This document shows, piece by piece, positions 25,405 through 47,825 of a DNA stretch of 64,000 nucleotides. This DNA is from Gemmatimonadales bacterium (GTDB lineage Bacteria; Gemmatimonadota; Gemmatimonadetes; Gemmatimonadales; GWC2-71-9): NCBI GenBank assembly GCA_035601235.1, contig DATNOR010000160.1, positions 2,137 through 66,136 of the forward strand, in the 5' to 3' direction. The notes under the pieces were generated by a model, which was not told the origin of the DNA, searched no databases, and saw nothing but the letters and a program-made list of their open reading frames with translations. The position numbers were made by a program, and so were the translations under genes. Positions within the stretch are counted from its first letter, which is position 1. Each line of letters starts with the position of its first letter.

Positions 25405-27001
25405 GCAGGAATCGCGGAGACCGCCGAGCCTTCATCGCCTGCTCGAACGCGTACGCGAACTTGATCAGGGCCGCCTCGCTCCAGGGACGCCCCACGAACG
25501 ACAGCCCCACCGGCAACCCAGCCACGTAGCCCATCGGCACCGTCACGTGTGGATAGCCGGCCACGGCCGCGGGACTGGAAAAGCTGCCGCCACCGCCCGG
25601 GTCCCCGTTCACCAGGTCGATGAGCGAGGGCGGGCCGCCCGTGGGGGCGACCAGCGCATCCAGCTGGTGCTCTGCCATCACGACGTCGATCCCCTGGGTG
25701 CGCGCCAGCAGGTGATTCTTGTCCAGCGCCCGCAGGTAGTCCTGATCGGTGAGCGGCCCCTTCGCCTCGGCCTGCGTGAAGATCTCCTGCCCGAAGTAGG
25801 GCATCTCCTGTCCCTTGTTGCGGTCGTTGAACGCGATCAGGTCAGCCAACGTCTTCGCGGTCGCTCCCGGCGCCCATTCGGCGAGGTACCGGTTCAGGTC
25901 CGCCTTGAACTCGTACAGCAGCACGGCGAACTCGCTGTCGTCGAATTGGCCGACGGTGGCGATGTCGGCGGGATCGACGATCACTGCCCCGAGCCGTTTG
26001 AGCGCATCGATCGCGCTCTCCATCAAGGCGTCGGTACCGGGGCTGTTGCCCATGAAGTGGGAGCGGCACACGCCGAGGCGGGCGCCCTTGAGGCCGGCGG
26101 AGTCGAGCGATGAGGAATAATCCGAGGCCGAATGGCCGGCGCTCGCCGCCGTCGCATCATCGTGGGGATCCACGCCGGTGAGCGCGCCCAGCAGGGTCGC
26201 CGCGTCGGCGACCGTGCGGGCCATGGGGCCCGCGGTGTCCTGGTTGTGGGCGATGGGGATGACGCCGGCCCGGCTCACGAGGCCGAGCGTCGGCTTAATG
26301 CCCACGATCGAGCAGCAGGTCGAGGGCGACACGATGGAGCCGTCGGTCTCGGTCCCGATGGCCGCCGCGCACAGGCTCGCCGCCACGGCGACCCCGGACC
26401 CCGAGCTCGAGCCGGACGGCGTGCGATCGAGCGCGTAGGGGTTGCGACACTGCCCTCCCCGCCCGCTCCAGCCGCTCGACGAGTGGGTCGAGCGGAAGTT
26501 GGCCCACTCGGACAAGTTCGCTTTGCCGAGCAGCACCGCACCCGCCGCGCGCAGCCGCTCCACCAGGAACGCGTCACGCGGCGGGGACACGCCCACCAGC
26601 GCGAGCGAGCCCGCCGTGCTCTGCATGCGGTCGCGCGTCGCCACATTATCCTTCACGAGGATGGGGATGCCGTGCAGCGGCCCCCGCGGGCCCTTGGCCT
26701 TGCGCTCCGCATCGAGCGCCGTGGCCTGAGTGAGCGCGTCGGGATTGGTCTCCAGCACCGAGCGCAGTCCCGGCCCCTTCCTGTCCAGGGCTTCGATCCG
26801 CTGCAGATACGCGGTGGTGATGGAACGGGCGGTGTACTTCCCGGACGCCATCCCCGCCTGCAGCTCCGCGATGGTCGCGTCCTCGAGCTCGAACGGAGCA
26901 GGTGGACTGACCCCGGGCGCAAACCCGGGGATCACGGAGCTGATACTGGCGACCCCCGCCAACTCGACGAACGCACGACGGTCCATCACCGATCGGGTCA
27001 T
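25382..27001 (-). CDS. Amidase-signature family amidase, Tat-exported
   Basis: It has the amidase signature GGSSSGSGVAVAA with upstream K (ILVKDN) and Ser residues. The N-terminus has a twin-arginine motif, MTRSVMDRRAFVELAG. GTG 27025 is an alternative start. Confidence 0.85.
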   Translation of the reverse strand: MTRSVMDRRAFVELAGVASISSVIPGFAPGVSPPAPFELEDATIAELQAGMASGKYTARSITTAYLQRIEALDRKGPGLRSVLETNPDALTQATALDAERKAKGPRGPLHGIPILVKDNVATRDRMQSTAGSLALVGVSPPRDAFLVERLRAAGAVLLGKANLSEWANFRSTHSSSGWSGRGGQCRNPYALDRTPSGSSSGSGVAVAASLCAAAIGTETDGSIVSPSTCCSIVGIKPTLGLVSRAGVIPIAHNQDTAGPMARTVADAATLLGALTGVDPHDDATAASAGHSASDYSSSLDSAGLKGARLGVCRSHFMGNSPGTDALMESAIDALKRLGAVIVDPADIATVGQFDDSEFAVLLYEFKADLNRYLAEWAPGATAKTLADLIAFNDRNKGQEMPYFGQEIFTQAEAKGPLTDQDYLRALDKNHLLARTQGIDVVMAEHQLDALVAPTGGPPSLIDLVNGDPGGGGSFSSPAAVAGYPHVTVPMGYVAGLPVGLSFVGRPWSEAALIKFAYAFEQAMKARRSPRFLPTAVLAP

Positions 27002-27078
27002 TGGCCGCTCCCGCGTGAATGACACAGGGTGGGTGGGCGGCTAAACTTGCTGCCACCCTTGCCGGACGGCCAGCGACG

Positions 27079-27960
27079 ATGCGGGTGGGCGGACAGTCGG
27101 AAGTCGGGAGGCTCCTCTCGGTGGCGATCAAGCCCGCGGGCGACGCGTTCCAGAGCGCGGCCGCGGTCGATCGCCAGTGGCGCGACCTGGGCTACACGGC
27201 GCCGCCGGAGCTCGGGGCAGCTAGCCCCGAGTACCGGGCGTTTCTCGCCCTGCTCGAGACCGCGGGGGCAGAGATCCTGTGCCTTCCGCCGGACGACAGC
27301 GTCGGTCTCGACTCGCTGTACGCCCGGGACGCCTCGATCGTGTGCGATGCCGGCGTGATCCTCTGTAACATGGGAAAGCCGCAGCGTCGCACCGAGCCCG
27401 CCGCTCAGGAGGCGGCGCTGCGCGCGGCCAGCGTGCCGATTCGCGGCCGCATCACCGGCGACGGCCGCCTCGAGGGCGGAGACGTCTGCTGGATCGACCA
27501 GCGCACGCTGGCGGTGGGCCGGGGTTACCGAACCAACGATGCGGGGATCAGCCAGCTGCGAGACTTGGTGGCGGGATGCGTGGACGAGGTGATCGTCGTG
27601 GCCCTGCCGCACTGGCGCGGGCCGGAGGACGTGTTTCACCTCATGTCGATCGTGAGTCCAATCGCCCGCGACCTGTTCCTCGTCTACGCCCCGCTCCTGC
27701 CGGTGCCGTTCCGCGAGGCCCTGCTCGCGCGGGGCATCGAGCTGGTGGAGGTGCCTGCGCCGGAGTTCGAGACGCTGGGCTGCAACGTGCTCGCGATCGC
27801 GGAGCGCGAGGTTCTGATGGTGGCGGGGAACCCGGCGACGCGGGCCCGGTTGGAGCAGGCCGGCGTGACCGTGCACGAGTTCGCGGGGCGGGAGATCTGC
27901 CTCAAGGGGGGCGGGGGGCCCACCTGTCTGACGCGGCCGCTGGCGCGGCAGGTCGGATGA
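27079..27960 (+). CDS. Amidinotransferase-fold enzyme (dimethylarginine dimethylaminohydrolase / arginine deiminase-like)
   Basis: I trimmed the start to ATG 27079. The C-terminal GGGGPTCLTRPL contains the catalytic Cys typical of the guanidino-modifying fold. It also has the FHLMS motif. Confidence 0.7.
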   Translation: MRVGGQSEVGRLLSVAIKPAGDAFQSAAAVDRQWRDLGYTAPPELGAASPEYRAFLALLETAGAEILCLPPDDSVGLDSLYARDASIVCDAGVILCNMGKPQRRTEPAAQEAALRAASVPIRGRITGDGRLEGGDVCWIDQRTLAVGRGYRTNDAGISQLRDLVAGCVDEVIVVALPHWRGPEDVFHLMSIVSPIARDLFLVYAPLLPVPFREALLARGIELVEVPAPEFETLGCNVLAIAEREVLMVAGNPATRARLEQAGVTVHEFAGREICLKGGGGPTCLTRPLARQVG

Positions 27961-28016
27961 CCCCACGGCGCCGCCGGTGGCCTTATATTGGCACAACCCC
28001 GCTCTTGGAGGCCCGC

Positions 28017-28214
28017 ATGACGAGGACCATCCTGGCAGCCGTAGGGTTGATCGGATTGGCCGCCTGTGGCGGCGGCAGCCATCGGACGACGAGGACGAAC
28101 ACGGCAACGCCGCCCAGGACCGAGTCCCGGGCGACCAGGGCGACCTCGCAGAAGCGCAAGGGTGCCGCCCGGCGTGACACGACCACCCAGCGGAACCCGC
28201 TCACCAACCGCTAG
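28017..28214 (+). CDS. Small (65 aa) basic lipoprotein, hypothetical
   Basis: ATG 28017 is preceded by GGAGG at a 5-nt spacing. It has a lipobox LIGLAAC followed by a Thr/Arg-rich low-complexity tail. Confidence 0.45.
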   Translation: MTRTILAAVGLIGLAACGGGSHRTTRTNTATPPRTESRATRATSQKRKGAARRDTTTQRNPLTNR

Positions 28215-28223
28215 CCCCGCACC

Positions 28224-29519
28224 TCAGGCGGACATCGCCCGCAGCTCGGCGTCTACGCGCTCCCGCTCGACGGCTTCGCCCAGCGAGTCGAACAGCTCGC
28301 GGGCGCGCTCGAGGTAGGCGCGAGCTTCTTCATGCTGGCCGAGCCGGCTGCGGAACAGCCCGTAGGCGTGGTATACCTGCGCTTCCGCGCCGGGAGAGCG
28401 CTCCACCGCGCGGGCGAGCTCGATCGCCTGCTCGAAGAACACGAATCCGGTCTCATCCTGCTGGGCGCCGCGCAGCTTCCCCATCAGCGTGTAGATCTGG
28501 GCCAGCCGGCCCGCCAGATTGGCCGCGATCGCCACCTGCTCCGCCCGGCGCAGCTCCCCTTCGGCGTCGAGCCAGCGCTCCATCTCGAGGTCGAGCTCAG
28601 CGAGATTCAAGCGGATCGCCAGCTCCAGCCCCGGCGCCCGGGGCTCTCGCTGTGCCCAGGCGAGCGCCTCCCGGTACGCCGCGTCGGCGGCGGTATGCCT
28701 CCCGAGCTGGGCGTCGAGCCGCCCCTGGGCGTCCAGCACGCGCGCCATCTCGTCGGCGCGTCCCGCCGCTTCGAACCGCTCGCGCGCGCGCCGCAGATAG
28801 TCACCGGCGGTGGCGAGATCGCCCTGCTTGCGGGCCAGCACGCCGAGCCGGCGCTCCAGCCGCCCCATCTGCCCCTCGTCACCCGACGCCTCGGCGAGGC
28901 GCAGCCCGCGACCGTACCATGCCAGGGCCCCCCCCCACTCGCCCTGGGCGCGCGACACGTCGCCCAGTCCCTCGCACGCCGCGATCGTGCCCGCCTGATC
29001 GAACTCCGCTTCCGCGAGGGCGAAGGCGCGCTGGAACTGACGGGCGCCTTCGACATACTGGCCGAGCCGGAGGCACAGATAGCCGAGGGCGCGCAGGGCG
29101 TCCACTTCGGGACGGCGGTCCTGCAGGCCTTCTGCCACGCTGAGCGCGAGCTCGTACCACGCTCGCGCCTGGGGGAACCGCCCCACTTCCTCCTCGAGAT
29201 GGCCGCCCCGCACGAGCGCGCCCACGACGCCCGCCGCGTCACCGCGTTGCCGGGCTTCGAGCGCCTCCACGTACGTCTTGCAGAGCGCCTGCACGTGCTC
29301 GGCGATGCGGTGCAGCGCATGGGGCAGACGGCGCCGCAGCTCGTCGGGGTCGACGCCGCGCTTGCCCAGCGTGAGGTACGGCCCCGAGCTCGACCACAAG
29401 GCCCGCTCGTCGGGGCGCGCAATCGAGATCAGCAGCGCGCGCAGCGGGGCGAGTGCCTCGAGCTCGGGCATGAGCTCCAGCGCCTTTTCGACGCGCACCG
29501 GAGGAAGCGGCGAGCTCAC
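28224..29519 (-). CDS. Tetratricopeptide-repeat (TPR) protein, last gene of the stressosome/EBP operon
   Basis: The body is all-helical with repeated A..Y..AL...G..G.A TPR-like units. The GTG start at 29519 overlaps the EBP stop (GTGA). Upstream ORF extension is rejected because it overlaps the EBP gene. Confidence 0.7.
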   Translation of the reverse strand: MSSPLPPVRVEKALELMPELEALAPLRALLISIARPDERALWSSSGPYLTLGKRGVDPDELRRRLPHALHRIAEHVQALCKTYVEALEARQRGDAAGVVGALVRGGHLEEEVGRFPQARAWYELALSVAEGLQDRRPEVDALRALGYLCLRLGQYVEGARQFQRAFALAEAEFDQAGTIAACEGLGDVSRAQGEWGGALAWYGRGLRLAEASGDEGQMGRLERRLGVLARKQGDLATAGDYLRRARERFEAAGRADEMARVLDAQGRLDAQLGRHTAADAAYREALAWAQREPRAPGLELAIRLNLAELDLEMERWLDAEGELRRAEQVAIAANLAGRLAQIYTLMGKLRGAQQDETGFVFFEQAIELARAVERSPGAEAQVYHAYGLFRSRLGQHEEARAYLERARELFDSLGEAVERERVDAELRAMSA

Positions 29520-30934
29520 AACCCGTACTCCTTCATCTTCCTGGTCAGGGTGTTGCGATGAATGCCCAGGATCTCGGCCGCCGCGCCGATCTGCCCGTTG
29601 GTGTGCGCGAGCACGCGCGCGATGTAGCGGGCCTCCACTTCCGCGAGCGCGAGCAGGCCGCCCTGCGGGCGGTCCGTCAGCGCCGTCTCTTCGCCGCGGA
29701 TCTCGTCCGGCAGGTGCTCGGCGCGCAGCGTGTCGTCGTTCGCGACGATGACGCCCCGCTCGATCACGTTGCGCAGCTCGCGCACGTTGCCGACCCACGC
29801 GTGGGCACGCAGCAGGTCCATGGCCCGGTCCGAGATCGCGATGATGCGCTTGCCGTAGCGCTCGGCGAACTGGCGGATGAAGAACGCGGTCAGCAGCAGC
29901 AGATCCTCGCCGCGCTCCGCCAGCTTCGGCAGACGGATCGTGATCACCGCCAGGCGGTAGTACAGGTCCTCCCGGAACCGGCCCTGCTTGATTGCTTCCT
30001 TGAGATCGCGGTTCGTCGCCGCAATGAGGCGCACGTCCACCGGGATCGTGTCCGTGCCGCCCACCCGCTCGATCTCCCGCTCCTGCACCGCCCGCAGGAT
30101 CTTGGCCTGGAGGGCGAGGCTCATGTCGGCGATTTCATCGAGGAACAGGGTCCCGCCGGCGGCGTGCTCGAAGCGGCCGACCTTGCGGGTCACCGCGCCC
30201 GTAAACGCGCCCTTCTCGTGGCCGAACAGCTCACTCTCGAGCAGGTTTTCCGGTATGGCGGCGCAGTTCACTGCCACGAACGCGCCGGTGGCCTTGGGGC
30301 CGTGCAGGTGCACGGCGCGGGCGACCACCTCTTTGCCCGTCCCCGATTCGCCCTGAATGAGCACGGTGGCGGTGCTGGCAGCGACGCGCGCCAGCAGCTT
30401 GTAGACGTCGAGCATGGCGGGACTCTGCCCGACCAGCGCATTCGGGCCGACGGCGTGATGCTCGACTACGGGAAGCGGAATCGTCGTGTCCCGGGCCGCG
30501 GAGCGCAGCCGCTCCAAGGCGCGGATCAGGTCGTCACGGCGCAGCGGCAGGGCGAGCACGTCCAGCACGCCGAGCTTCTCGGCGCGCAGCGCCAGTCCCA
30601 TCGACGGCGTCTGCGCCGCCGCGATCAACCGCGGGCCACCCGTGGCGGCGCGCAACGCGTCGGCCCACCACCCCAGCTCCTCGTCGGGGCGCTCGCCCAG
30701 CGCGGCGAGGACGACGTCCCACCGCTGGCCCGCCAACAGACGCACCGCCCGCGGCAGATCGGGCGCCGCGTCCACCTCCAGCCGGCCGTCGTCCGCCCAC
30801 TGCCGCAGACTCTGGAGCAGGGCGGCGCTCCCCGCACCCTCACCCGCGACGACGAGAATCCGCAAGCGCGCTGCGTCCTCCTTCCGCGGCACCGCGGGCA
30901 GAGGCGAAGGCTCCATCCCGATCGGAGGGGTCAT
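29516..30934 (-). CDS. Sigma-54-dependent transcriptional activator (bEBP) with degenerate N-terminal receiver-like domain
   Basis: It has the AAA+ Walker A GESGTGKE, the sigma-54 contact loop GAFTGA, Walker B LFLDEI, the R-finger region, and a C-terminal Fis-type HTH (AAEILGIHRNTLTRKMKEYGL). The ATGA overlap joins it to the rsbX-like stop. Confidence 0.9.
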   Translation of the reverse strand: MTPPIGMEPSPLPAVPRKEDAARLRILVVAGEGAGSAALLQSLRQWADDGRLEVDAAPDLPRAVRLLAGQRWDVVLAALGERPDEELGWWADALRAATGGPRLIAAAQTPSMGLALRAEKLGVLDVLALPLRRDDLIRALERLRSAARDTTIPLPVVEHHAVGPNALVGQSPAMLDVYKLLARVAASTATVLIQGESGTGKEVVARAVHLHGPKATGAFVAVNCAAIPENLLESELFGHEKGAFTGAVTRKVGRFEHAAGGTLFLDEIADMSLALQAKILRAVQEREIERVGGTDTIPVDVRLIAATNRDLKEAIKQGRFREDLYYRLAVITIRLPKLAERGEDLLLLTAFFIRQFAERYGKRIIAISDRAMDLLRAHAWVGNVRELRNVIERGVIVANDDTLRAEHLPDEIRGEETALTDRPQGGLLALAEVEARYIARVLAHTNGQIGAAAEILGIHRNTLTRKMKEYGL

Positions 30935-31572
30935 CCGCTCGTCCGGGTGCCGCCCCGATAGCGAGCCACCAGCACTAGGGCATCATCCGTGCCCTTGCCG
31001 TGCTGGCTCAGGATGTGCTCGGCGAGCTGTTGCGGGGGTGCCTCGAGCTGCAGCCCGTCGCTGAACCCTTCCCGGATCCCGTCGGTGGCGAAGATGAGCA
31101 CGTCTCCGCGGGCCAGGGGGACTACCTGCGCGCGGACCTCTGGCAGCTCGGATCCGACAATGCCGCCCCGCGTGACCAGACCGGCGCGCGTCGGCTTGGC
31201 CGACGGGGCCGCGCCGACATGGAACAGCATGCAGTCCACGTTGCCGACACCGGCCCACGTCAGGGCGTTCTGGTGGCGGTTGGCGAACGCGAGGCTCATC
31301 ACCACGCCGCGCGAGCCCTTGAGCGCCACGTGGCAGCGCTCGAGCAGCGCCAACACCGATTCGGACGCGTGCTCATCCAGCGTATTCACGGCCGTGCGGG
31401 CTGCAGTCGCCGCTTCCGTGCCGTGGCCTAGCCCATCCACGACCGCGACGAGCACGCCGGTGGCGACCGGCTTGACCAGGTGCAGGTCCCCGGACTGGGC
31501 CTGGCCCGGCAGCGCCGACGCGGCGACGCCCCAGTCGATCAGGGCCGAGGCGTCCACCGACGCCCTAGGCAT
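30931..31572 (-). CDS. rsbX: PP2C/SpoIIE-type serine phosphatase, RsbX-like
   Basis: 213 aa with GDLHLV..VAVVDGLGHG and FATDGI metal-binding Asp motifs. Its position directly after the rsbT homologue matches the canonical RsbRSTX module. Confidence 0.75.
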   Translation of the reverse strand: MPRASVDASALIDWGVAASALPGQAQSGDLHLVKPVATGVLVAVVDGLGHGTEAATAARTAVNTLDEHASESVLALLERCHVALKGSRGVVMSLAFANRHQNALTWAGVGNVDCMLFHVGAAPSAKPTRAGLVTRGGIVGSELPEVRAQVVPLARGDVLIFATDGIREGFSDGLQLEAPPQQLAEHILSQHGKGTDDALVLVARYRGGTRTSG

Positions 31573-31975
31573 TCATGCGCCGCCATTTCTTCATCGTCAC
31601 GGTGGTCCCCTTGCCCGCATCGGAGACCACCTCGAAATCGTCCATCAGACGGCGGGCGCCGGGCAGCCCGAGACCCAAACCCCCGGACGTGGAGTACCCG
31701 TCCTGCATGGCGCGGGGCACGTCGCGGATCCCGGGCCCCTGATCGCGCGCCACGACAATGACGCCCTGACGGTCGCCGTTCGCCACGACGCTGAGGGCGA
31801 TTTCGCCACGCTTGGCGTACATCAGGATGTTGCGCGCGATCTCGGAGATGGCGGCGGCGATCACGGTCTGGTCGCCGCTCGAGAATCCCGCCTCCGCGGC
31901 CAGGTCGCGCCCCCGCTGCCGGGCGGTGACGACGTCCACATCCGCCGCGATCGGGATCAGCAAGTCGTCAGCCAC
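31565..31975 (-). CDS. rsbT: RsbT-like GHKL serine/threonine kinase (anti-sigma-regulatory-factor family)
   Basis: 136 aa with a GTG start. It has the HATPase_c_2 motifs EIARNILMYA, DQGPGI and GLGLGLPG, with 8-nt overlaps on both sides. Confidence 0.85.
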   Translation of the reverse strand: MADDLLIPIAADVDVVTARQRGRDLAAEAGFSSGDQTVIAAAISEIARNILMYAKRGEIALSVVANGDRQGVIVVARDQGPGIRDVPRAMQDGYSTSGGLGLGLPGARRLMDDFEVVSDAGKGTTVTMKKWRRMNA

Positions 31976-32363
31976 GGTCGAGACGTCCCGGTCCGCCGCG
32001 CTCGATTCGGATCTGGGTCTGGACGTTGAGGAACGCCAGGCCTTCCTCCAGGTCGAGGGCGGTCGACACCCCCTTGAGCGTCAGCCCGAGCTGCACCATC
32101 GCGAACGCGACCTCGGGCTGGATGCCCACGATCACCGTTTCCGCACCGCGCAGCCGCGCCATGTGCGCGATGTCGCGCAGCGTGCGGACGGCGAACGAAT
32201 CCATCACGTCGAGCGCCGTGACGTCCACGATGACCCCGCGCGCCCGAAACCGCCCCACGCGCTCGATCAACGCCTCACGCAGCTGCGACAGATCGGCGTC
32301 GGTCAGCGCCGACTGGATGGACGCGATCAGGTAGTGACCCTGCTTCAGAATGGGAACTTCCAC
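31968..32363 (-). CDS. rsbS: Single-domain STAS protein, RsbS-like stressosome scaffold
   Basis: 131 aa with a GTG start. The STAS fold includes DVTALDVMDSFAVR, which carries the conserved phosphorylatable Ser in the DS context. Confidence 0.85.
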   Translation of the reverse strand: MEVPILKQGHYLIASIQSALTDADLSQLREALIERVGRFRARGVIVDVTALDVMDSFAVRTLRDIAHMARLRGAETVIVGIQPEVAFAMVQLGLTLKGVSTALDLEEGLAFLNVQTQIRIERGGPGRLDRG

Positions 32364-32394
32364 ACGCCCCCCGTCGACGGAGTGGTGTGCCGGC

Positions 32395-33303
32395 TCACGC
32401 CTTCGGAGTCAGCTCTTCCAGCGGCACGACCTTGTACCCCAGCAGCCGCTCCGCCTCCTCGATGCCCCCCTGCAGATCGCCCACCGTCGCCATCTCGCTC
32501 AAGTCGACGCCGATCGTCACGAGTGTCTGCGCGATTTCGGGCGAGAGACCCGTCACGATCACCATGGCACCTAGCAGGCGCGACGCTTCGACCGTCTGCA
32601 CGAGGTGGTTCGCCACGTTTGAGTCCATGGCCGCAACGCCCGTGATGTCGATCACGACCACCTTGGCGCGGTTGGTCCGGATGGCCCGCAACAGCTGCTC
32701 GGTGAGCTGGCGCGCGCGCTGCGGATCGATCACGCCGATGATCGGCAAGATCAAGAGCCGCTCGCGCACCTGCAACACCGGCGTCGATAGCTCCCGGATC
32801 GCCTCCTGCTGCTGGCGGATGATGCGCTCGCGCTCTTGCACGAAGCCGACCGCCACCGTGTTGGCGATGCGGTTGGCGGCCGGCTCGTAGGCGTCGAGGA
32901 TGCGGTTGAGTTTGTCGAAATCCTCGTGGTATTTGCCGAACAGCGAGCGGGCGAGCACGTCGCGCAACAGCAGCACGATTCCGACCACTTCGTGCGTCTC
33001 GACCCCTCGCGGGATGATGCGCTCCGACAGGTTGCGCGCGTAGGCCTGCAGGGCCTCGAACGTCCCCGTCTCGAGCGCTTCGACGTAGTTGTCGTACACC
33101 GAGGTCGCTTCGGCGAAGATTTCCTCCTCGGTCATCGCCGTGAGCAGCTGGGCTCGCGTGATGCGCCGGGCCCATTCCTCACGCAACTGGGTGCGATTCT
33201 GCCGGAGGTGCGCCACCAGCTCGCGCAACAGCGCCGCGGTGGATTCCGTCTGTGCTTGGGAGTCAGGCAGCGGCGACTGTGCGTCTTTTCCTTTGGTGGC
33301 CAT
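32395..33303 (-). CDS. rsbR: RsbR-like stressosome sensor (N-terminal helical/globin-like sensor domain plus C-terminal STAS)
   Basis: 302 aa. The C-terminal ELSTPVLQV..LLILPIIGVID..IDITGVAAMDS matches the RsbR STAS domain, including positions equivalent to the two phospho-acceptor sites. Confidence 0.85.
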   Translation of the reverse strand: MATKGKDAQSPLPDSQAQTESTAALLRELVAHLRQNRTQLREEWARRITRAQLLTAMTEEEIFAEATSVYDNYVEALETGTFEALQAYARNLSERIIPRGVETHEVVGIVLLLRDVLARSLFGKYHEDFDKLNRILDAYEPAANRIANTVAVGFVQERERIIRQQQEAIRELSTPVLQVRERLLILPIIGVIDPQRARQLTEQLLRAIRTNRAKVVVIDITGVAAMDSNVANHLVQTVEASRLLGAMVIVTGLSPEIAQTLVTIGVDLSEMATVGDLQGGIEEAERLLGYKVVPLEELTPKA

Positions 33304-33346
33304 GGCTGGCGCTCCCCGCCTGGTCGAATGTTGCCGCGGCGCAACA

Positions 33347-33361
33347 GCAAGGCTAGTGCCA
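33347..33361 (-). promoter_or_regulatory. Sigma-54 (-24/-12) promoter of the stressosome operon
   Basis: The minus strand reads tTGGCACtagccTTGCt, a full match to TGGCAC-N5-TTGC(W). The -12 C lies 44 nt upstream of the rsbR ATG, with a GGGGAG Shine-Dalgarno in between. Confidence 0.7.
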
Positions 33362-33799
33362 ACTTGTTGGATCGGCTCGACTACCGTAACTGACGACTCC
33401 CAAGAGCGTTACAAATCTACTCGCTGTACGAGGAGAGCGTCAGTGCAACACTTCGAGGCGCGCGCGTGCGGCTTGATGCACAAAAAAAAGGCGCAGGGGA
33501 GCGAGCCACCATCGGGGCCCACCCGCCCGCGCGCTGCAGTCGGGTGGACGCAATCCGCGAATGGTCAGCTCAGTTGGCCCGCTTCCCCGCGTACATGTCC
33601 TGCGTATCGTCGTGGCGCGCCGCATCGCGGCACCCACGCTACTACGGGTCCCTTCGCAAGACGGATGCCGCGCGCGGTGCCTTGATTCGTGTTACTCGAG
33701 CGGGACGCGGGGCGGCCCCATGTGGTCGGAATGCAGCATCATGCCGCACGAATTGTACGACGCAGTCGCAGCGCCGCCGCGGAGCTTAGGGAGAGCGCC

Positions 33800-33829
33800 G
33801 CGGGGAGCGGCGTGCGGTCCGCTCCCCGC
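33800..33829 (-). terminator. GC-rich stem-loop downstream of wecB (putative operon terminator, no U-tract)
   Basis: A perfect 11-bp stem, gcggggagcgg / ccgctccccgc, with an 8-nt loop, about 75 nt after the wecB stop. Confidence 0.45.
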
Positions 33830-33902
33830 CGGGCTCTGCATCGGTCATTCGCTGACCTCCGGGTTAGGCACACTGTTGCGACGGCTCATCTGCGTGCGAC
33901 GC

Positions 33903-35072
33903 TCAGCCGGTGCCGAGCGGGTGCGGGATCGCGACCGCGCGGCGGGGGGTGTGGGGCGAGGTCGCCGCCAGCGGGACGTCGAGCTCGAACCGCTCCTCGT
34001 CGCAGAGGACGCGGGCGATGCGTTCGGCCGCCCGGCCGTCCCACCGCTCGATGACCGGTCGCGCCGGCGAGCGGCGCGCCAGCGCCCGCTCGGCGGCCGC
34101 GAGGATCGCGTCGCGCTTGGGGAGTACGAGACGGTTCGTGCCGTGGGTGCAGGTGATGGGACGCTCGGTGCTGGGCCGCACCGTGAGACACGGCACGCCC
34201 AGGAACGACGTCTCCTCCTGGAGCCCGCCCGAATCGGTCACCACGAGCGCCGCGCCCGCCACCAGGCTGAGCATCTCCATATACCCGAGCGGCTCGAGCA
34301 CCTGCAGCGGGCCGTCATCCGGGAGCCGGAGTCCGTGCGCCTGGAGGCGCTGGCGCGTACGAGGGTGCATCGGGAACAGGACCACCACTCGCTCCGCCAG
34401 CAGGACTAGGGCCTCGACCAGCTCCCGGAAGACGACGGGGTCGTCGACGTTGCCCGGCCGGTGCAACGTCACCATGGCGAACCGCTTCCCGCTCAGCCCG
34501 CGGCGCGCCGGGACTTCCAGCGCCAGCGCCTGCGGCAGCGCCCAGCTGAGCGTATCGATCATGACGTTCCCCACGAAGTGCATCCGATCGAGCCCAATCC
34601 CCTCGCCGGCGAGATTGGCTGCGGCGTCGCGCGATGGCAGGAACAGCAGGTCCGACAGGCGGTCCGTGACCACCCGGTTGATCTCCTCGGGCATCGTCCA
34701 GTCGCCGCTGCGCAACCCAGATTCAACGTGACCGATGCGCACCCCGAGTTTGGCGGCCACGAGGGCGGCGGCCAGGGTGGAGTTGACGTCGCCGTAGACC
34801 AGCAGGATCTCGGGCCGGAGCTCCGCTAGGATGGGCTCAAGGCGCTGCATCACTTCGGCTGTCTGGCGCGCGTGCGAACCCGAGCCGACCCCGAGATGGT
34901 GGTCGGGCGCCGGGATCCACAGCTCTTCAAAGAACGCGTCCGACATGTCCCGGTCGTAGTGTTGTCCGGTGTGCACGATCACGTGCTCGATGCCGCGCTT
35001 CACCAGCTCGCGATCGACCGGTGCGAGCTTCATGAAGTTGGGGCGCGCGCCCACCACGGAGAGAACTCGCAT
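33903..35072 (-). CDS. wecB: UDP-N-acetylglucosamine 2-epimerase (non-hydrolysing)
   Basis: I trimmed the start to ATG 35072. The N-terminus MRVLSVVGARPNFMKLAPV, plus HTGQHYD, VHVESGLRS and DSGGLQEE motifs, fit WecB. Confidence 0.9.
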   Translation of the reverse strand: MRVLSVVGARPNFMKLAPVDRELVKRGIEHVIVHTGQHYDRDMSDAFFEELWIPAPDHHLGVGSGSHARQTAEVMQRLEPILAELRPEILLVYGDVNSTLAAALVAAKLGVRIGHVESGLRSGDWTMPEEINRVVTDRLSDLLFLPSRDAAANLAGEGIGLDRMHFVGNVMIDTLSWALPQALALEVPARRGLSGKRFAMVTLHRPGNVDDPVVFRELVEALVLLAERVVVLFPMHPRTRQRLQAHGLRLPDDGPLQVLEPLGYMEMLSLVAGAALVVTDSGGLQEETSFLGVPCLTVRPSTERPITCTHGTNRLVLPKRDAILAAAERALARRSPARPVIERWDGRAAERIARVLCDEERFELDVPLAATSPHTPRRAVAIPHPLGTG

Positions 35073-35077
35073 TCGGC

Positions 35078-35710
35078 TCAGCGCATGTGCGTCGCGATCA
35101 GAATCGCCGCTGGGATCCCCGCGAGGATCGCGATGATCCGCCACTTGGATTCGGGGTCGGCGCGCCGGGGCACGATGATCTGATCGCCCGAGCGCAATCC
35201 CATGCCGTCGACGGTCGCGCCGCGCGCGATCGCCTCCTGCAGATCACTGCCCGTCACGCCGTCCCGTCCGATCCGGTCGATGCGCGTGCCGGTGAATTTC
35301 GCGTCCTTCGTGGGTCCTCCGGCCGCCATCAACGCGTCCGACACCGGGGCGTCGGCCGCGACCGGGTAGAACCCTGGGTGCTCCACTTCGCCCAGCACCG
35401 ACAGCCGCACCAGCACCTTGGCATGGACGACGGGATCCTTCATGTAGCGTTTGAGCTGGTCCCTGAGGTACGTCTCCACCTGCGCGCGCCGCACCCCCGC
35501 GAGCGGGATGGGGCCGATCACCGGGAGCATCAGGGCCGGTCCGGGACCGACCGTGAAGGCCTTGGTGAACTGGCTGTCCCCCTCCACCTCGAGCTGGATC
35601 TGGTCGTTGATCTGGAAGTCGCTGGTCGCGGCCCCGTTTGCCGTCTGGGCGGCGGCGGGACCTGCCAGGAGCATCAGCGCCACGAGGCGCACGATCGTCT
35701 TGGCTATCAT
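35078..35710 (-). CDS. Polysaccharide export protein (Wza/Poly_export plus SLBB type)
   Basis: It has a signal peptide, a Poly_export-like segment (INDQIQLEV..FTVGPGPALMLPVIGPIPLAG) and an SLBB-like C-terminal part (GDQIIVP). Confidence 0.75.
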   Translation of the reverse strand: MIAKTIVRLVALMLLAGPAAAQTANGAATSDFQINDQIQLEVEGDSQFTKAFTVGPGPALMLPVIGPIPLAGVRRAQVETYLRDQLKRYMKDPVVHAKVLVRLSVLGEVEHPGFYPVAADAPVSDALMAAGGPTKDAKFTGTRIDRIGRDGVTGSDLQEAIARGATVDGMGLRSGDQIIVPRRADPESKWRIIAILAGIPAAILIATHMR

Positions 35711-35714
35711 GGTA

Positions 35715-37541
35715 TCACTCGACTGTTACGCTTTTCGCCAGGTTGCGCGGCCGATCCACGTCGCAGCCACGCAGCACGGCGATATGATAGGCCAGCAGCT
35801 GCAGCGGGATGACCGTCAGCACCGGCGCCAACAGGGGTGAGCTCGCCGGCACCGCGATCTGGTAGTCCACGAGCCGCCCGAGATCACCGTTGCCCTCGCT
35901 CGTAATCGCGATGATGCGGCCGCCCCGTGCCTTCACTTCTTGCATGTTGGATACCACCTTGGCATAGACCGAGTCCTTCGGCGCGAGACACACGACCGGC
36001 ATGTTCTCGTCGATCAGGGCGATGGGCCCGTGCTTCATCTCCGCCGCGGGGTAGCCCTCCGCGTGGATGTAGGAAATCTCCTTCAGCTTCAGGGCTCCCT
36101 CGAGCGCCACCGGGAAGTTGACGCCACGCCCCAGATACAGGGCGTTGCGCGCCTCGGCATAGCGCTCGGCGAGGGCGCGGATTTGGGGCTCCATCTGGAG
36201 GGTCCGCGCCACGAGATCCGGCAAGCCCAACAGCTCCGTGACCATGGCACGCCCCTCATCGACCGACATGCCGCGCTGGCGTCCCAGCCACAGGCCCAGC
36301 AGCAACAGCGCCACCACCTGGGCGGTGAACGCCTTGGTGGAGGCGACCCCGATCTCCGGACCGGCGTGCAGGTAGATGCCGCCGTCCGCCTCCCGCGCGA
36401 TCGTGGAGCCCACCACGTTGACCAGACCGATCACGGTCGAGCCCGCCGCCTTGGCAGCGCGCAGCGCCTCCAACGTGTCGGCCGTCTCGCCCGACTGCGA
36501 AATCGCGATGGTGAGCGTCCCCGGGATGCGCAGCTCGCGCCGGTAGCGATACTCCGACGCGTACTCGACCGACACCGGGATCTCGCTCAGCTCCTCGAGG
36601 ATGTGACGGCCGACCAGCCCGGCGTGCCACGACGTCCCGCATGCCACGATCACGATGCGCCGGATGCGGCTGCACTGCGACGGCGTCAGGTTCAAACCGT
36701 TGAGGCGCGCCGTCCCCTCGCCGGCGAGCAACCGTCCCCGCAGCGTGCTCCGCACCGTCTCCGCCTGCTCGCAGATCTCCTTCAGCATGAAGTGCGGGTA
36801 CCCGCCCAGGGCGATGGCGTCGAGGTCCCATTCGATGTCGTCCACCGCTCGATCCTGCTCCTGGGCGTGACTGTCGAGCACGCGATACCCGGACCGCGTC
36901 ACCACGGCGACGTCGCCGTCGTTGAGGTAGACCACCGATCGCGTATGGGCGAGCACGGCGCTCGCATCAGACGCCACGAGGAATTCGCCGTCCCCGACCC
37001 CGAGCAACACCGGCGAGCCGCGCCGGGCGACCACGATCTTCCCGGGATCCGCCTCGGAGACGACCGCGATGCCGTAGGTCCCCTCGACATGGGCGAGGGC
37101 CGCCATGACGCGCTCCTCGAGCGTCTCGCCCACGGAGTCTTCGATCAGGTGCGCCAGCGTTTCGGTGTCGGTGTCGGTCGTGAAGCGGTGGCCCTCGCGC
37201 TCGAGCCGCGTGCGCAGCACGTCGGCGTTTTCGATGATCCCGTTGTGGACCAGGGCGAGCGTGCCGCTGCAGTCGCTGTGGGGGTGCGCGTTACACTCGG
37301 TCGGCGCGCCATGCGTCGCCCAGCGCGTGTGGCCGATGCCGCAGCTGCCGTGCAGCGGCGCCTCCGACAGCAGGTCCCGCAGGCGCGCGATGCGTCCCGC
37401 AAGCTTGCGGGTCTCGACCCCACCCCCGTTCAGGACCGCGACTCCGGCGGAGTCGTAACCGCGATACTCGAGCCGGCTCAATCCTTCCACCAGCACCGAC
37501 GCCGCTTCTCTCGGCCCGACGTACCCGACGATTCCACACAT
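35715..37541 (-). CDS. glmS: Glutamine--fructose-6-phosphate aminotransferase (isomerising)
   Basis: 608 aa with N-terminal MCGIVGYVG (Ntn Cys), two SIS domains and a C-terminal AKSVTVE. Confidence 0.95.
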   Translation of the reverse strand: MCGIVGYVGPREAASVLVEGLSRLEYRGYDSAGVAVLNGGGVETRKLAGRIARLRDLLSEAPLHGSCGIGHTRWATHGAPTECNAHPHSDCSGTLALVHNGIIENADVLRTRLEREGHRFTTDTDTETLAHLIEDSVGETLEERVMAALAHVEGTYGIAVVSEADPGKIVVARRGSPVLLGVGDGEFLVASDASAVLAHTRSVVYLNDGDVAVVTRSGYRVLDSHAQEQDRAVDDIEWDLDAIALGGYPHFMLKEICEQAETVRSTLRGRLLAGEGTARLNGLNLTPSQCSRIRRIVIVACGTSWHAGLVGRHILEELSEIPVSVEYASEYRYRRELRIPGTLTIAISQSGETADTLEALRAAKAAGSTVIGLVNVVGSTIAREADGGIYLHAGPEIGVASTKAFTAQVVALLLLGLWLGRQRGMSVDEGRAMVTELLGLPDLVARTLQMEPQIRALAERYAEARNALYLGRGVNFPVALEGALKLKEISYIHAEGYPAAEMKHGPIALIDENMPVVCLAPKDSVYAKVVSNMQEVKARGGRIIAITSEGNGDLGRLVDYQIAVPASSPLLAPVLTVIPLQLLAYHIAVLRGCDVDRPRNLAKSVTVE

Positions 37542-37956: not shown

Positions 37957-37972
37957 CGGCCCCGTGTTTGCA
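37957..37972 (+). promoter_or_regulatory. Candidate sigma-54 promoter upstream of the RR-GGDEF-like gene
   Basis: cGGCCCcgtgtTTGCA has correct GG-N10-GC spacing and a full TTGCA -12 box. It lies 59 nt upstream of ATG 38030, with a G-rich SD in between. Confidence 0.35.
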
Positions 37973-38029
37973 GATAGCACCAGTGCCCTAACGGGTTATC
38001 CCGACACGCTGTTCGGGGGGGAGCGAAGC

Positions 38030-38989
38030 ATGAGCGAGCGAATGCCACAAGCCGGATTGCCGCTGGTCCTACTCGGCGGTGACGGCCAGGAGGCCACGCG
38101 GTGGCTGAAGAGCCTGCTGGAAGGCGGCGGCTACGCCGTGCTCCAGGAGCGCTTGGCTCAGCACGTGCTCGAGCGCGCTCGTAGCACGGAGCCGGACCTC
38201 ATCATCGTCGACGCGGAGCTCCCCGACATGCCGGGCGCCGACCTGTGTCGCACGCTCCGCACCGACCCGCGGGTCTCGAGCAGCACGCCGATCTTGCTCG
38301 CCGTGCGTGAACCGGCCAGCCGGGCCCAGCGGCTCGCCGCGCTGCGCGCCGGCGCGTGGGAATGCATCACGCCGCCGCACGACGCCGACGAGATTCTGCT
38401 CAAACTCGGCGCCTACGTGCGCGCCAAGCTCGATGCCGATCGCGCCCGAGCGGAGGGGCTACTCGATTCCACGGGACTCTACAACCGGCAGGGACTCGCC
38501 CGTCGCGCGCGCGAACTCGGCTCCCAGGCGTTCCGCGATCATGGGCCCCTGGCGTGCGTCGTGCTCGTGGTCGACCTCGAGCCCCAGGACCTCGCCCCGG
38601 GTCAGCAAGGGAGCGGCATCGTGGGGCGGTGCGTGCAGGCGCTCAAGGCCTCCGCGCGTCTGTCGGACGTGATCGGGCGGTTGAGCCCGACGGAGTTCGC
38701 GGTGTTGGCCCCGGGCACGGACGCCGTGGGAGCGCGCCGGCTCGCCGAGCGGCTGGCGAGCTCTGTGTCCACACCGAACACCACGGGGGAACTGGCGACC
38801 GCGGGCTCGACCGTCACGCCGTCGCCTCGGGTCCGCTGCGGCTACGAGGCCGTCGCGAACGTGGGGTACGCGCCGATCGAGCCGGTCGATCTACTGGTTC
38901 GGGCCGCGGCCGCCGTCCGCACCGGAAAGACGGATTCCGGGAGCTGGCTGCGGCGCTTCGACGAAGGAATCGGTACCGCCGCTTCTTAG
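38030..38989 (+). CDS. Response regulator with degenerate GGDEF output domain (SPTEF) that retains an RxxD I-site
   Basis: I trimmed the start to ATG 38030. The receiver has DLIIVDAELPDMPG. The GGDEF-like domain has LDSTGLYNRQGL, then RLSD-VIGRL-SPTEFAVL in place of RxxD-x5-GG(D/E)EF. Confidence 0.75.
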   Translation: MSERMPQAGLPLVLLGGDGQEATRWLKSLLEGGGYAVLQERLAQHVLERARSTEPDLIIVDAELPDMPGADLCRTLRTDPRVSSSTPILLAVREPASRAQRLAALRAGAWECITPPHDADEILLKLGAYVRAKLDADRARAEGLLDSTGLYNRQGLARRARELGSQAFRDHGPLACVVLVVDLEPQDLAPGQQGSGIVGRCVQALKASARLSDVIGRLSPTEFAVLAPGTDAVGARRLAERLASSVSTPNTTGELATAGSTVTPSPRVRCGYEAVANVGYAPIEPVDLLVRAAAAVRTGKTDSGSWLRRFDEGIGTAAS

Positions 38990-41388
38990 ACCGGAACCCG
39001 GGGCGACCCGCTGTTCTCGTCCATCGCTTCATACCCCGGCAGATAATAGGAATAGTACCGGTAGGCGCCGCCTGCCGGTACGTCGTTCAGCACCGCTCCG
39101 AGCATACGTACCGGCAGCCGCTGCAGCACCTCCAGCTTGGCCGCCGCCACGTCACGGTGGCTGTAGCCCGTGCGCAGAACCAGGGCGAGCGTCCCGGTCA
39201 GGGTGCTGAGGATGAGGGGGTCCACTCCGGCAGCGAGCGGCGGGCTGTCGATCAATACCACATCGTAGCCCGACCGCAGGCCGTTCACCAGTGACGTCAT
39301 CGCCGGCGAGCCAAGCAACTCCGGCGCGTTGTAGGCGCGTGTCCCACAGCCGATCAGCGAGAGTGCCGGGAACTGCGTCGCCTGCACGATGGCGTCGAGC
39401 TGCGCCTCGCCGCGCAGGAAGTCGCTCAAGCCGGGCCGGCGGCGCACGCTCAGCCGGCGGTGCAGTACGCCCCGCCGGATGTCCGCGTCGATCAGCAGCG
39501 TGCGGTGCCCGCCGTCGGCGAAGGTGTGCGCCAGGTTCGCCGCGATGAACGACTTGCCGTCGCCTGCGCCGGGACTGGTGATCGTCACCAGCAGCGGGGC
39601 CCGGCCGCCGTGGGCGTACACGAGGTTCAGGCACACGCCGCGCAGGGCCTCGACGACTTCGTTGACGTCGTCCGGCACGCGGGCGCCGCCGCCCCGGCCG
39701 CCACGCGGCAGGTTGCGGAGATGGGGGACCGCACCCAGGATCGGGATTCCCAGTCCGCGCGAGACCTGGTCGGGATAGCGCACCTTGGGGTCGATTCGAT
39801 CGAGCACCACGGCGCCGCACAGCCCCAGCGCCAGGCTGGCGGCGAATCCCAGGAAAATCACGCGCGGCGCCGTATTCCGCACCGGATCCTGCGGCATGAC
39901 GGCGTGATCGAGAATGCGCGCGTCGGGAACGGCACTCTCTTCGGCGAGGCGCGCTTCGTCGTAGTTCTTTTGCAGGTTGGTATACAAGTTCTCCGCCAGC
40001 GTCACCTGGCGCTGCAGCCGCGCCTCGTCGATGGCGCGCGGTGGGACCGCCTGCAGCGTGCGCGAGTCCGCGGTCACCCGGCGCCCCAGCTCAGCTTCCC
40101 GGCCGGAGAGCTCGGCCCGCAGCTGGCGCGCCAGGTTCGGGATCGTCTGCCGTTGCAGCGTGGCGATTTCGCCGAGCCGCTTCTGCACCAGGGGGTACGC
40201 GTCCGCGTACTTGTATCGCAGCGCGCGGAGCTCCGCCTGTTTCGTGGTCAGCTCCGCCAGCGCCTGGGTGAGCTGCACGTTCTGCTGCACCGACCCGACG
40301 ACCGCCAGCGCTTCCGCCGACAGTCCCGAGTCTCCCGACTGCGCCAGCACCCGCTCGAGTGCCTCCCGATCACGCTGCACCTGGTCGCGATCGACCTGCA
40401 TCTTGAAGAAGCTCGTGAAGGCCGGATCGTCGGTTCCGCCGGCCTTGGGAATCTGCGAGGGCCGCGCGATCGTGTTCACCTGGAACCGCTCCAGCGCCTG
40501 TTCGGCGTCGAGCAGGTTCTGGTGCGCCCCCGCCAGCTGCTGGTCGAGAATCTTCGTCAGCTCCGTGAGCTTCTGCCGACGCAACTCCGCCGCGACCTGC
40601 ACAAAACGCTCGGCGATCGCGTTGATCGTCGAGGTGATGCGTGCGGCGTCCGCGCCCTTCAAGTGCATCCGCAGGAAGTTGCCCGCGGGATCAGTCGCCA
40701 CCTCGAGCTCGTCACTCAACGCCCGCGCGGAATCGCGCACCGTCGCCACCGAGAACTCGATGGTGCGGCCGGCGGGGATGGTGCCGGCTGGCGGGGCCCA
40801 GCTGAACCCCAAGCGGACGCCGATCGAGTCGCCCACAGCCCCGTGCTCCACCTCGACGCCCTTGTCGGTCGACAGCGTGAAGTTCCGTCCCCTGCCGTCC
40901 ACGGTCAGACGGTACACTCCCGGTCGATACTGGTCCGCCACCCGGAACGTCTCGAGCAGGGGAGCGTCCTCCCGCTCCTTGGGCGTCAGGAACAGGCGCC
41001 GGTCGCGCACCACTTGGTCGAGCACGCGGTAGGACTTGAGCAGGTCGAGCCAGGCCTCGGGCTCGAGCGGCTGCCCCGCGCGAATCGGGCCGCGATCCAC
41101 GCCGCCGCGCTGATCGGGCTGATCGATCCACAACGTCGCCTGAACCATGTACTGCGGCTTGATGAAGCGGGTCGCCGCCAGACCGCCGACCGTACCCAGG
41201 ATCGTTACCACTGCAATCAGCCACTTGAAGCGCGCGACCGCGCTCCACACGCGGCGCCAGTCGACGCCGGTCTCCGGCTGGGCGAATCCCTGGCCGAACC
41301 CCATGTCGGCGCCCACGGGCGGCGCGGCTGCGGGGGCCACGGCGGGCAACGAGGAGCCGGCATGAAGGGGGAGGGGACTGGTGCTCAT
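38986..41388 (-). CDS. Wzc/GumC-type polysaccharide co-polymerase fused to a BY tyrosine autokinase
   Basis: I trimmed the start to ATG 41388. It has an N-terminal Wzz-like domain with TM segments and a long coiled coil. Motifs are Walker A SPGAGDGKS, A' LLIDADIRRG, Walker B DVVLIDSPP, and a C-terminal Tyr cluster YRYYSYYLPGY. Confidence 0.85.
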   Translation of the reverse strand: MSTSPLPLHAGSSLPAVAPAAAPPVGADMGFGQGFAQPETGVDWRRVWSAVARFKWLIAVVTILGTVGGLAATRFIKPQYMVQATLWIDQPDQRGGVDRGPIRAGQPLEPEAWLDLLKSYRVLDQVVRDRRLFLTPKEREDAPLLETFRVADQYRPGVYRLTVDGRGRNFTLSTDKGVEVEHGAVGDSIGVRLGFSWAPPAGTIPAGRTIEFSVATVRDSARALSDELEVATDPAGNFLRMHLKGADAARITSTINAIAERFVQVAAELRRQKLTELTKILDQQLAGAHQNLLDAEQALERFQVNTIARPSQIPKAGGTDDPAFTSFFKMQVDRDQVQRDREALERVLAQSGDSGLSAEALAVVGSVQQNVQLTQALAELTTKQAELRALRYKYADAYPLVQKRLGEIATLQRQTIPNLARQLRAELSGREAELGRRVTADSRTLQAVPPRAIDEARLQRQVTLAENLYTNLQKNYDEARLAEESAVPDARILDHAVMPQDPVRNTAPRVIFLGFAASLALGLCGAVVLDRIDPKVRYPDQVSRGLGIPILGAVPHLRNLPRGGRGGGARVPDDVNEVVEALRGVCLNLVYAHGGRAPLLVTITSPGAGDGKSFIAANLAHTFADGGHRTLLIDADIRRGVLHRRLSVRRRPGLSDFLRGEAQLDAIVQATQFPALSLIGCGTRAYNAPELLGSPAMTSLVNGLRSGYDVVLIDSPPLAAGVDPLILSTLTGTLALVLRTGYSHRDVAAAKLEVLQRLPVRMLGAVLNDVPAGGAYRYYSYYLPGYEAMDENSGSPRVPV

Positions 41389-41633
41389 CGGAACGCGTAC
41401 CTCCACTTGTGGTGGCAGGCCGCGCCGGGTGACGCGGTCGACGCGCCTTCCCTGTGGCAAGTCCGATACCGCGCGGCACGGAGCCAACACCATCCTCATG
41501 CCGCAAATCGGTGCACGGCATCCAGACGCCGGATGCACCTTGGTGCGGGGCCGACGCCTCTAACGACCGTGTGACACTCAGAATTCGTTGTCGTTGTGCG
41601 GAGAATCGCTGCCGCTGCGGCCTTGCGACAGGT

Positions 41634-41649
41634 TGGCCCGAACCCTGCG
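41634..41649 (+). promoter_or_regulatory. Candidate sigma-54 promoter upstream of the NtrC-type regulator
   Basis: tTGGCCCGaacccTGCg has correct GG-N10-GC spacing. It lies 37 nt upstream of ATG 41685, with a GAGGA SD in between. Confidence 0.35.
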
Positions 41650-41684
41650 TAGGGTGGGGTCAACCGGAAATCGAGGACGCCCCG

Positions 41685-47821: not shown

Positions 47822-47825
47822 TCCG

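Follow-up and report, generated by a model that had tools for sequence, protein, structure and literature searches.

A minimal stressosome of soil Gemmatimonadota encoded with a pseudo-receiver sigma-54 activator and a TPR protein, a candidate new downstream module

A 64,000-nucleotide (nt) stretch of DNA from a Gemmatimonadales bacterium (contig DATNOR010000160.1; referred to below as the window, whose numbering is used for all coordinates unless another locus is named) carries on its minus strand the stressosome genes rsbR, rsbS, rsbT and rsbX, directly followed by genes for a sigma-54 enhancer-binding protein (EBP) and a TPR protein. We suggest, with a probability of roughly 50%, that a minimal stressosome is coupled here to a new downstream module, namely an EBP with a pseudo-receiver domain and a dedicated TPR protein, and that both are encoded in a sigma-54-dependent operon. 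The evidence comes from the proteins themselves, from the recurrence of the six genes in related loci, and from the promoter regions upstream of rsbR.

Genes were assigned from a listing of open reading frames (ORFs), a scan with Pfam profiles and a comparison with solved structures. The six co-directional genes of the run, which spans 28224-33303, are as follows, in the order of transcription.

32395-33303, minus strand: rsbR-like gene, 302 amino acids (aa), RsbR-type N-terminal sensor domain and C-terminal STAS domain
31968-32363, minus strand: rsbS-like gene, 131 aa, one STAS domain with a conserved phosphorylatable serine (VMDSFAV)
31565-31975, minus strand: rsbT-like gene, 136 aa, GHKL serine kinase
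30931-31572, minus strand: rsbX-like gene, 213 aa, single-domain PP2C phosphatase
29516-30934, minus strand: EBP gene, 472 aa, pseudo-receiver, AAA+ domain (GAFTGA) and HTH_8
28224-29519, minus strand: TPR protein gene, 431 aa, GTG start at 29519 within a GTGA overlap with the stop codon of the EBP gene

A first-pass annotation of the window had placed the six genes at these positions, and its domain assignments were upheld by the Pfam profiles. A gap of 31 nt lies between rsbR and rsbS, and the remaining junctions overlap by 8 nt (GTGGCTGA), 8 nt (ATGCCTAG), 4 nt (ATGA) and 4 nt (GTGA). The gap and the overlaps of 4-8 nt had been described correctly, but the ATGA or GTGA type of junction occurs twice and not three times. 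Such overlaps between stop and start codons indicate coupled expression and tie translation of the EBP and TPR genes to that of rsbX. The eight genes that flank the operon are housekeeping or polysaccharide genes. None of the eight encodes RsbU, RsbV, RsbW, a sigma factor or a histidine kinase, so the earlier claim that no RsbU, RsbV, RsbW or sigma-factor gene adjoins the operon stands. RsbU_N found no match among the operon proteins even at E = 10, and the sigma-B output set as a whole (an RsbU_N-PP2C protein, an anti-sigma antagonist, an anti-sigma kinase and a sigma factor) is absent from the operon and its eight neighbors.

Judged by its sequence, rsbRSTX is a complete minimal stressosome module with a standard sensing part. 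RsbR matched the STAS profile (4e-15) and aligned over its full length with Listeria RsbR (E = 1.6e-34); its N-terminal part, scanned alone, scored 25.6 bits with RsbRD_N, the cut-off of which is 24.3 bits. One of the two phosphorylation sites known from Bacillus RsbRA is missing, in that the equivalent of T171 is a proline (IGVIDPQRA, compared with IGTIDTERA), while the equivalent of T205 is a serine (AMDSNVA, compared with VVDTMVA). The STP context listed for RsbR by the first-pass annotation is not a phosphorylation site. RsbS matched the STAS profile (1e-14) and both Listeria and Bacillus RsbS (E = 2e-27), and it retains the serine equivalent to Bacillus S59, with VMDSFAV aligned to FIDSFIA of Listeria and MIDSFIA of Bacillus. 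RsbR is also highly constrained across loci. Its residues 26-290, which include the sensor, are 94-100% identical, whereas third codon positions are 63-71% identical, a difference that implies unusually strong purifying selection on the stressosome sensor; in the same genomes RsbX, the EBP and the TPR protein are merely 47-80% identical.

The kinase and the phosphatase are likewise intact. RsbT matched HATPase_c_2 (4e-12), and its N box (EIARN), G1 box (DQGPGI) and G2 box (GGLGLGLPG) are kept in all orthologues, with single substitutions at non-critical positions only. Among solved structures, SpoIIAB was the sole match (E = 3e-6) and no RsbT chain was matched at E <= 0.001; the assignment as RsbT therefore relies on motifs, size, position and names given at the source, near-identical relatives being labelled 'serine/threonine-protein kinase RsbT' by the Joint Genome Institute (JGI). 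RsbX matched the SpoIIE/PP2C profile (2e-14), its motifs LGHG, ATDG and GTDDAL are invariant, its metal-binding motifs are kept in orthologues, and its relatives, too, are named RsbX by JGI.

The fifth gene encodes a typical sigma-54 activator as far as its central and C-terminal domains are concerned: Sigma54_activat was matched at 3e-73 (245 bits), together with AAA_lid_14 and HTH_8 (9e-15), and the GESGTGKE and GAFTGA motifs reported earlier are present. The protein aligns with response regulators of the NtrC family, but carries an alanine at the position of the acceptor aspartate. All orthologues, three distant ones among them, have Ala, Val, Leu, Ile or Pro here and also lack the conserved lysine of receivers. 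With Pfam, the N-terminal domain reached 13.8 bits against Response_reg, compared with a cut-off of 30.2 bits. Nonetheless, an AlphaFold2 model built with 33 homologues shows a (beta/alpha)5 fold for residues 24-148 (mean confidence score, pLDDT, 73.6), and a Foldseek search with this model retrieved receiver domains, among them the atypical receivers CpaE2/TadZ, AmiR and HP1043. The model gives the domain a receiver fold, and the missing acceptor makes it a predicted non-phosphorylatable receiver, or pseudo-receiver. Without the acceptor aspartate, input by His-Asp phosphoryl transfer is impossible.

The pseudo-receiver is rare and its distribution is informative. A phmmer search of 1.84 billion representative proteins returned 65 matches to the N-terminal domain, and all family members with a readable genomic context sit in an rsbRSTX operon. 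The three most distant full-length members, which are 47, 40 and 35% identical to the EBP in the N-terminal domain, are encoded directly after rsbR-S-T-X, and a TPR gene comes next in both of the two cases in which the contig continues. The pseudo-receiver thus appears to form a small family seen in stressosome operons only, which is the strongest sequence-level argument for a functional coupling between the two modules. The C-terminal end of the EBP, with HTH_8, is highly similar down to the most distant members.

The partner gene follows the same pattern. The TPR protein matched TPR_12 (1e-23) and contains an invariant motif, GFVFFE; wherever the locus extends far enough, its gene comes right after that of the EBP, and the family was found in this operon context only. 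TPR repeats had been predicted for the whole protein, but the first ~90 residues have no Pfam match. A structure model from the single sequence was too poor for a fold search (pLDDT 58.9, with the N-terminal 170 residues below 50).

Homologues were surveyed by scanning one genome per species with the EBP, which placed the window among metagenome-assembled genomes of Gemmatimonadales from soil. The order R-S-T-X-EBP-TPR is kept in 8/8 Gemmatimonadota genome loci as far as the contigs reach, with EBP identities of 64-96%, and also in 8 additional contigs. The same operon was found in sixteen further contigs and ~20 metagenome loci, together with a wider synteny of GlmS, polysaccharide export, WecB, a variable insert, the operon, a DDAH-like gene, an amidase and a glycosylase. 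Wherever a related locus is long enough, all six genes appear in this order, which is therefore not a chance arrangement. In other phyla, the 72 loci with the most similar EBP genes had neither a stressosome nor a homologue of the TPR protein nearby. Relatives of RsbT and RsbX are very numerous in soil metagenomes; the best 120 of RsbT are at least 82% identical and the best 120 of RsbX at least 64%, and those named for an organism all belong to Gemmatimonadota. By these counts, the operon is widespread and abundant in soil Gemmatimonadota. One distant locus, L117 (4572-8395), deviates in that rsbR is split, the kinase and phosphatase genes are seemingly fused, and the AAA+ domain is garbled and only weakly matched. 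We rejected the fused kinase-phosphatase as a real variant, as the pattern looks like assembly frameshift errors.

Upstream of rsbR, four elements on the minus strand may bear on the expression of the operon.

33347-33361, minus strand: sigma-54 promoter P2, TGGCACTAGCCTTGC, 44 nt upstream of the rsbR ATG
33478-33494, minus strand: candidate upstream activator site for P2, dyad GCGCC-T8-GTGC
33443-33451, minus strand: second conserved element, GTGTTGCAC, TGTTGCA-like, ~31 nt beyond the dyad
33330-33345, minus strand: inverted repeat GTTGC-N6-GCAAC, directly after the -12 element of P2, at roughly -10 to +6

P2 is the sole exact TGGCAC-N5-TTGC in the window, where 0.08 would be expected by chance. 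It is identical in loci L001-L006 and L081-L088 and in 23 of the 27 metagenome loci that reach it, while variants of P2 and the distant loci retain the GG and GC elements. Across ~40 related loci the promoter is near-invariant, although the flanking intergenic sequence diverges. In simple scans of 27800-34000, neither a sigma-70-type promoter nor a minus-strand terminator was found. The conservation of P2 and its perfect consensus suggest that the operon is probably sigma-54-dependent and self-activated. The dyads are of one type (GCRCC, a T-rich spacer and GGTGC). Of eight diverged upstream regions, seven have the GTGC half at positions -120 to -122 relative to P2, and in L117 the promoter is preceded by a perfect TTGCACC-N5-GGTGCAA. 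The simplest reading of the dyads would be that they are activator sites bound by the EBP of the operon itself, with positive autoregulation as the result. In the GTTGC-N6-GCAAC repeat, the arms are kept across loci and the spacer is variable; the repeat could be an operator.

Further upstream, between wecB and rsbR, lies a candidate second transcription unit.

33656-33670, minus strand: P1, second sigma-54-type promoter, CGGCATCCGTCTTGC, between wecB and rsbR
33482-33644, minus strand: candidate sigma-54-dependent structured RNA (~160 nt), with a 5' hairpin, a ~100-nt hairpin (33493-33590) and a T run

Of 28 metagenome loci, 24 have a P1-type sequence, GGCA(C/T)-N5-(T/C)TGC, at the corresponding position between wecB and rsbR; one is also present there in L002, L004, L006, L081 and L085. 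The consensus fold of the RNA, computed with RNAalifold from 17 distinct sequences, is a ~100-nt hairpin with 28 pairs, 10 of which show compensatory changes, and a variable apical stem; the 5' hairpin also covaries, and a T run ends most copies. We rejected the possibility that the element is a small gene, for single-nucleotide insertions and deletions between orthologues break every reading frame while the base pairs are kept. Scanning 27000-36000 gave no match in Rfam 15 at E <= 0.1. A pattern search found the motif in 28 metagenome loci, of which 27 have it beside rsbR and in the same orientation, ~275 nt before the start codon; the contig of the 28th (L102) ends right after the motif and is too short to show rsbR. 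The RNA is thus a candidate for a new RNA family. With a covariance model, a diverged copy was detected in L005 (9467-9596, minus strand; 40.9 bits, E = 1e-5), beyond the other end of the operon. Another sigma-54 promoter (TGGCACGCAGCTTGC) precedes this copy by 30 nt, and a 278-aa ORF (8489-9325) at the syntenic position of the DDAH-like gene lies downstream of it, which suggests that the RNA may be a leader in some contexts. A search of the window for stretches complementary to the conserved loops, as possible targets, returned the RNA itself and scattered 9-mers only.

The RNA is not the only occupant of this position. In other genomes, the RNA is replaced by a pair of genes behind a P1-like promoter that encode secreted proteins or lipoproteins (L081, 334-1716; L085, 2478-4007); the products are of 193-225 aa and 237-239 aa and have no Pfam match. 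The gap between wecB and rsbR is empty in L003 and L005. A small, variable and local sigma-54 regulon thus seems to travel with the operon.

These elements might work together as follows. By homology to the complexes of Bacillus, Listeria and Vibrio, the STAS core of RsbR and RsbS would hold RsbT, and a signal at the N-terminal domain of RsbR would lead RsbT to phosphorylate the RsbS serine and the remaining RsbR serine, upon which RsbT would be released. Free RsbT would then act on the EBP-TPR pair, and not on an RsbU-type phosphatase. It may bind or phosphorylate the pseudo-receiver, which would otherwise keep the AAA+ domain inactive, or it may displace the TPR protein from a role as anti-activator. 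The active EBP would bind the dyad ~120 bp upstream and drive P2 and P1; promoters and dyads can be read in the sequence, and their conservation argues for such a use by the EBP. Transcription from P2 would raise expression of the operon itself, a positive feedback for which the co-induced RsbX may provide the reset, and transcription from P1 would yield the neighboring structured RNA or, in other genomes, the two secreted proteins. We infer signalling from RsbT to the EBP or the TPR protein from gene linkage; the dead receiver and the restriction of both downstream families to this context point in the same direction. It is conceivable, and we put it forward tentatively, that RsbT directly gates a sigma-54 AAA+ activator, through the dead receiver or a TPR anti-activator, in a self-amplifying circuit with the structured RNA or the secreted proteins as its local output.

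In the first-pass annotation, the EBP had been proposed as the output of the stressosome. The architecture, the lack of an adjoining sigma-B module and the lack of a prior description all hold, and the findings that the family of the EBP N-terminal domain occurs only downstream of rsbRSTX and that the TPR gene always follows the EBP gene add to them. The conserved sigma-54 promoter of the operon implies, however, that at least part of the wiring is probably reversed, with the EBP switching on the stressosome genes. Several points, moreover, weigh against a coupling from RsbT to the EBP: Pfam detects no RsbT-docking domain of the RsbU_N kind in the EBP or the TPR protein; P2 being a sigma-54 promoter, the EBP might do no more than regulate the stressosome genes; RsbT could have its true target elsewhere in the genome; rpoN was not found in the window; the upstream elements of P1 and P2 are not clearly one motif; a second EBP, encoded 12 kb away, could serve the operon promoters; and outside the clade stressosome loci were surveyed indirectly, by way of the literature and of loci in other phyla that encode related EBPs.

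The first and second of these points are also what would be seen if the EBP and TPR protein were an independent sensor-activator pair that switches on rsbRSTX and the RNA, while the target of RsbT lies elsewhere or the output of the stressosome is non-transcriptional. This is the main alternative, and we regard it as rather unlikely. It is favored by the position of the conserved promoter and the candidate activator sites directly upstream of rsbR, and by the capacity of TPR proteins to be sensors or anti-activators themselves. A precedent exists in Vibrio fischeri, where SypG drives a locus that includes a STAS protein and a kinase/phosphatase acting on another step (PMC4517449). On the other hand, the EBP and TPR genes would then lie inside the very operon that they control, in translational coupling with rsbX; the pseudo-receiver family is confined to this context; and in other rsbRSTX systems the modules right after rsbX are taken as the output (PMC9237108). 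Sequence analysis cannot separate this alternative from an output role of the EBP.

A further alternative turns on another activator in the window. On the plus strand, 41454-43310 encodes another sigma-54 activator, whose receiver is canonical (93 bits); a HisKA/HATPase_c kinase gene follows at 43307-44152. If this EBP, for example, served P1 and P2, the EBP of the operon would regulate unlinked genes. Such an arrangement has in its favor that an intact-receiver EBP and its neighboring histidine kinase lie 12 kb away in the same polysaccharide locus, and that the candidate activator sites are not assigned to any protein. We nevertheless consider it improbable, because P2 and the dyad accompany the operon in differing surroundings (L117, L119), and because even the most distant EBPs of the operon keep a highly similar C-terminal end with HTH_8, which fits the conserved dyad. 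Finally, mere adjacency of two unrelated modules on a common transcript, with no functional coupling, has only the lack of direct interaction data to recommend it and is very hard to reconcile with an order and overlaps that are kept across loci with 35-96% identity, and with a TPR family and an EBP N-terminal family found only in this context.

The operon is located at the edge of an exopolysaccharide locus, which includes the following genes.

33903-37541: GlmS, Poly_export and WecB
37964-38989: REC-GGDEF protein
38986-41538: Wzz/GNVR tyrosine-kinase-like protein
46283-47821: flippase
47721-48968: acetyltransferase

Inside this locus, a one-mismatch sigma-54-like site (CGGCACGGCCGTTGC, 46080-46094, minus strand) lies 37 nt upstream of an ORF at 45012-46043, which encodes 343 aa and has no Pfam match. 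Just after wecB, a conserved hairpin, GGGGAGCGG-ACCGCACG-CCGCTCCCC (33802-33827, minus strand), shows a compensatory change in L085 and overlaps an ORF of ~20 codons with a good ribosome-binding site (MTDAEPGGERTARRSPRRSP). The hairpin could be a terminator, a stabilizer or part of a small peptide gene.

Stressosome signalling outside Bacillales is an open question, for which this operon offers a compact and strongly conserved case. It presents obvious candidate targets of RsbT, namely a receiver that cannot be phosphorylated on aspartate and a dedicated TPR protein, and a simple read-out in the two adjoining sigma-54 promoters. If RsbT does act on the EBP, stressosomes would be joined to sigma-54 transcription and a new mode of EBP control would be added; if it gates the EBP, a stressosome would for the first time be seen to reach transcription without partner switching of the sigma-B type. 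As the operon is abundant in soil Gemmatimonadota, a major and poorly understood phylum, and lies beside an exopolysaccharide locus, it may also bear on the stress response in soil. A full-text literature search found no paper that links a stressosome or RsbT with sigma-54 activators and none on stressosomes of Gemmatimonadota, in agreement with the first-pass annotation, which had held this wiring to be uncharacterized.

Among known systems, the stressosome of Bacillus subtilis and Listeria monocytogenes is the reference. There, RsbR and RsbS form a pseudo-icosahedral complex of ~1.8 MDa that sequesters RsbT, and signals pass from RsbR-RsbS-RsbT to RsbU, from there to RsbV-RsbW and on to sigma-B, with RsbX as a feedback phosphatase. 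The operon described here, for which such a complex is predicted by homology, shares with that system the RsbR sensor and STAS domain, the RsbS serine, the ATP boxes of RsbT, the PP2C domain of RsbX and the order R-S-T. It differs in that RsbU, RsbV, RsbW and sigma-B are not encoded in its vicinity, rsbX directly follows rsbT, the T171 equivalent of RsbR is a proline, a sigma-54 activator gene and a TPR gene lie downstream, and the promoter is of the sigma-54 type.

Sigma-54 activators that are controlled by a partner protein and not by phosphorylation are well known, for example PspF-PspA, NifA-NifL, HrpS-HrpV-HrpG and FleQ-FleN, and HrpV/HrpG is a true partner switch. The resemblance would be one of logic and not of homology: the EBP has no phospho-accepting input, and an adjacent, dedicated partner may hold and release it. 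None of these partners is a TPR protein of the present family or a stressosome kinase. Similarly, Vibrio LuxO acts with adjacent, sigma-54-dependent Qrr small RNAs, and here too a sigma-54 activator gene is accompanied by a neighboring candidate structured RNA with a sigma-54-type promoter of its own. Unlike the Qrr RNAs, to which it has no similarity (nor to any Rfam family), the RNA described here may be a leader and not a trans-acting molecule.

Minimal rsbRSTX modules are also known from Gram-negative bacteria. Such modules are widespread, and their downstream partners, which include PP2C phosphatases, cyclic di-GMP (c-di-GMP) enzymes and HisKA/REC phosphorelays, mostly have no RsbU_N docking domain; no RsbT target was shown for them (PMC9237108). 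In Vibrio vulnificus, RsbRSTX is combined with the D1/D2 two-component, c-di-GMP module (PMC9237108, PMC10014275). The present operon conforms to this plan, with four genes in the order R-S-T-X, then at once a variable downstream module of proteins without RsbU_N. In contrast to the modules surveyed, however, the downstream part is a sigma-54 AAA+ activator with a pseudo-receiver, together with a TPR protein, and the RsbR sensor is of the RsbRD_N/Listeria type.

The nearest analogue in logic is the syp locus of Vibrio fischeri, which encodes the STAS protein SypA, the kinase/phosphatase SypE and the sigma-54 response regulator SypG (PMC4517449). As in the present operon, genes for a STAS protein, for serine kinase and PP2C activities (joined there in an RsbW-like protein) and for a sigma-54 activator stand together in or beside a polysaccharide locus with sigma-54 promoters. 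SypG, on the contrary, has a functional receiver fed by a phosphorelay, while SypE and SypA come into play at a separate step, once transcription has occurred (PMC4517449); moreover, syp has neither an RsbR/RsbS core nor a TPR partner. Thus, the minimal stressosome of this operon is of a known kind, whereas the downstream module, the pseudo-receiver, the probable autoregulatory sigma-54 promoter and the associated candidate RNA appear to be new.

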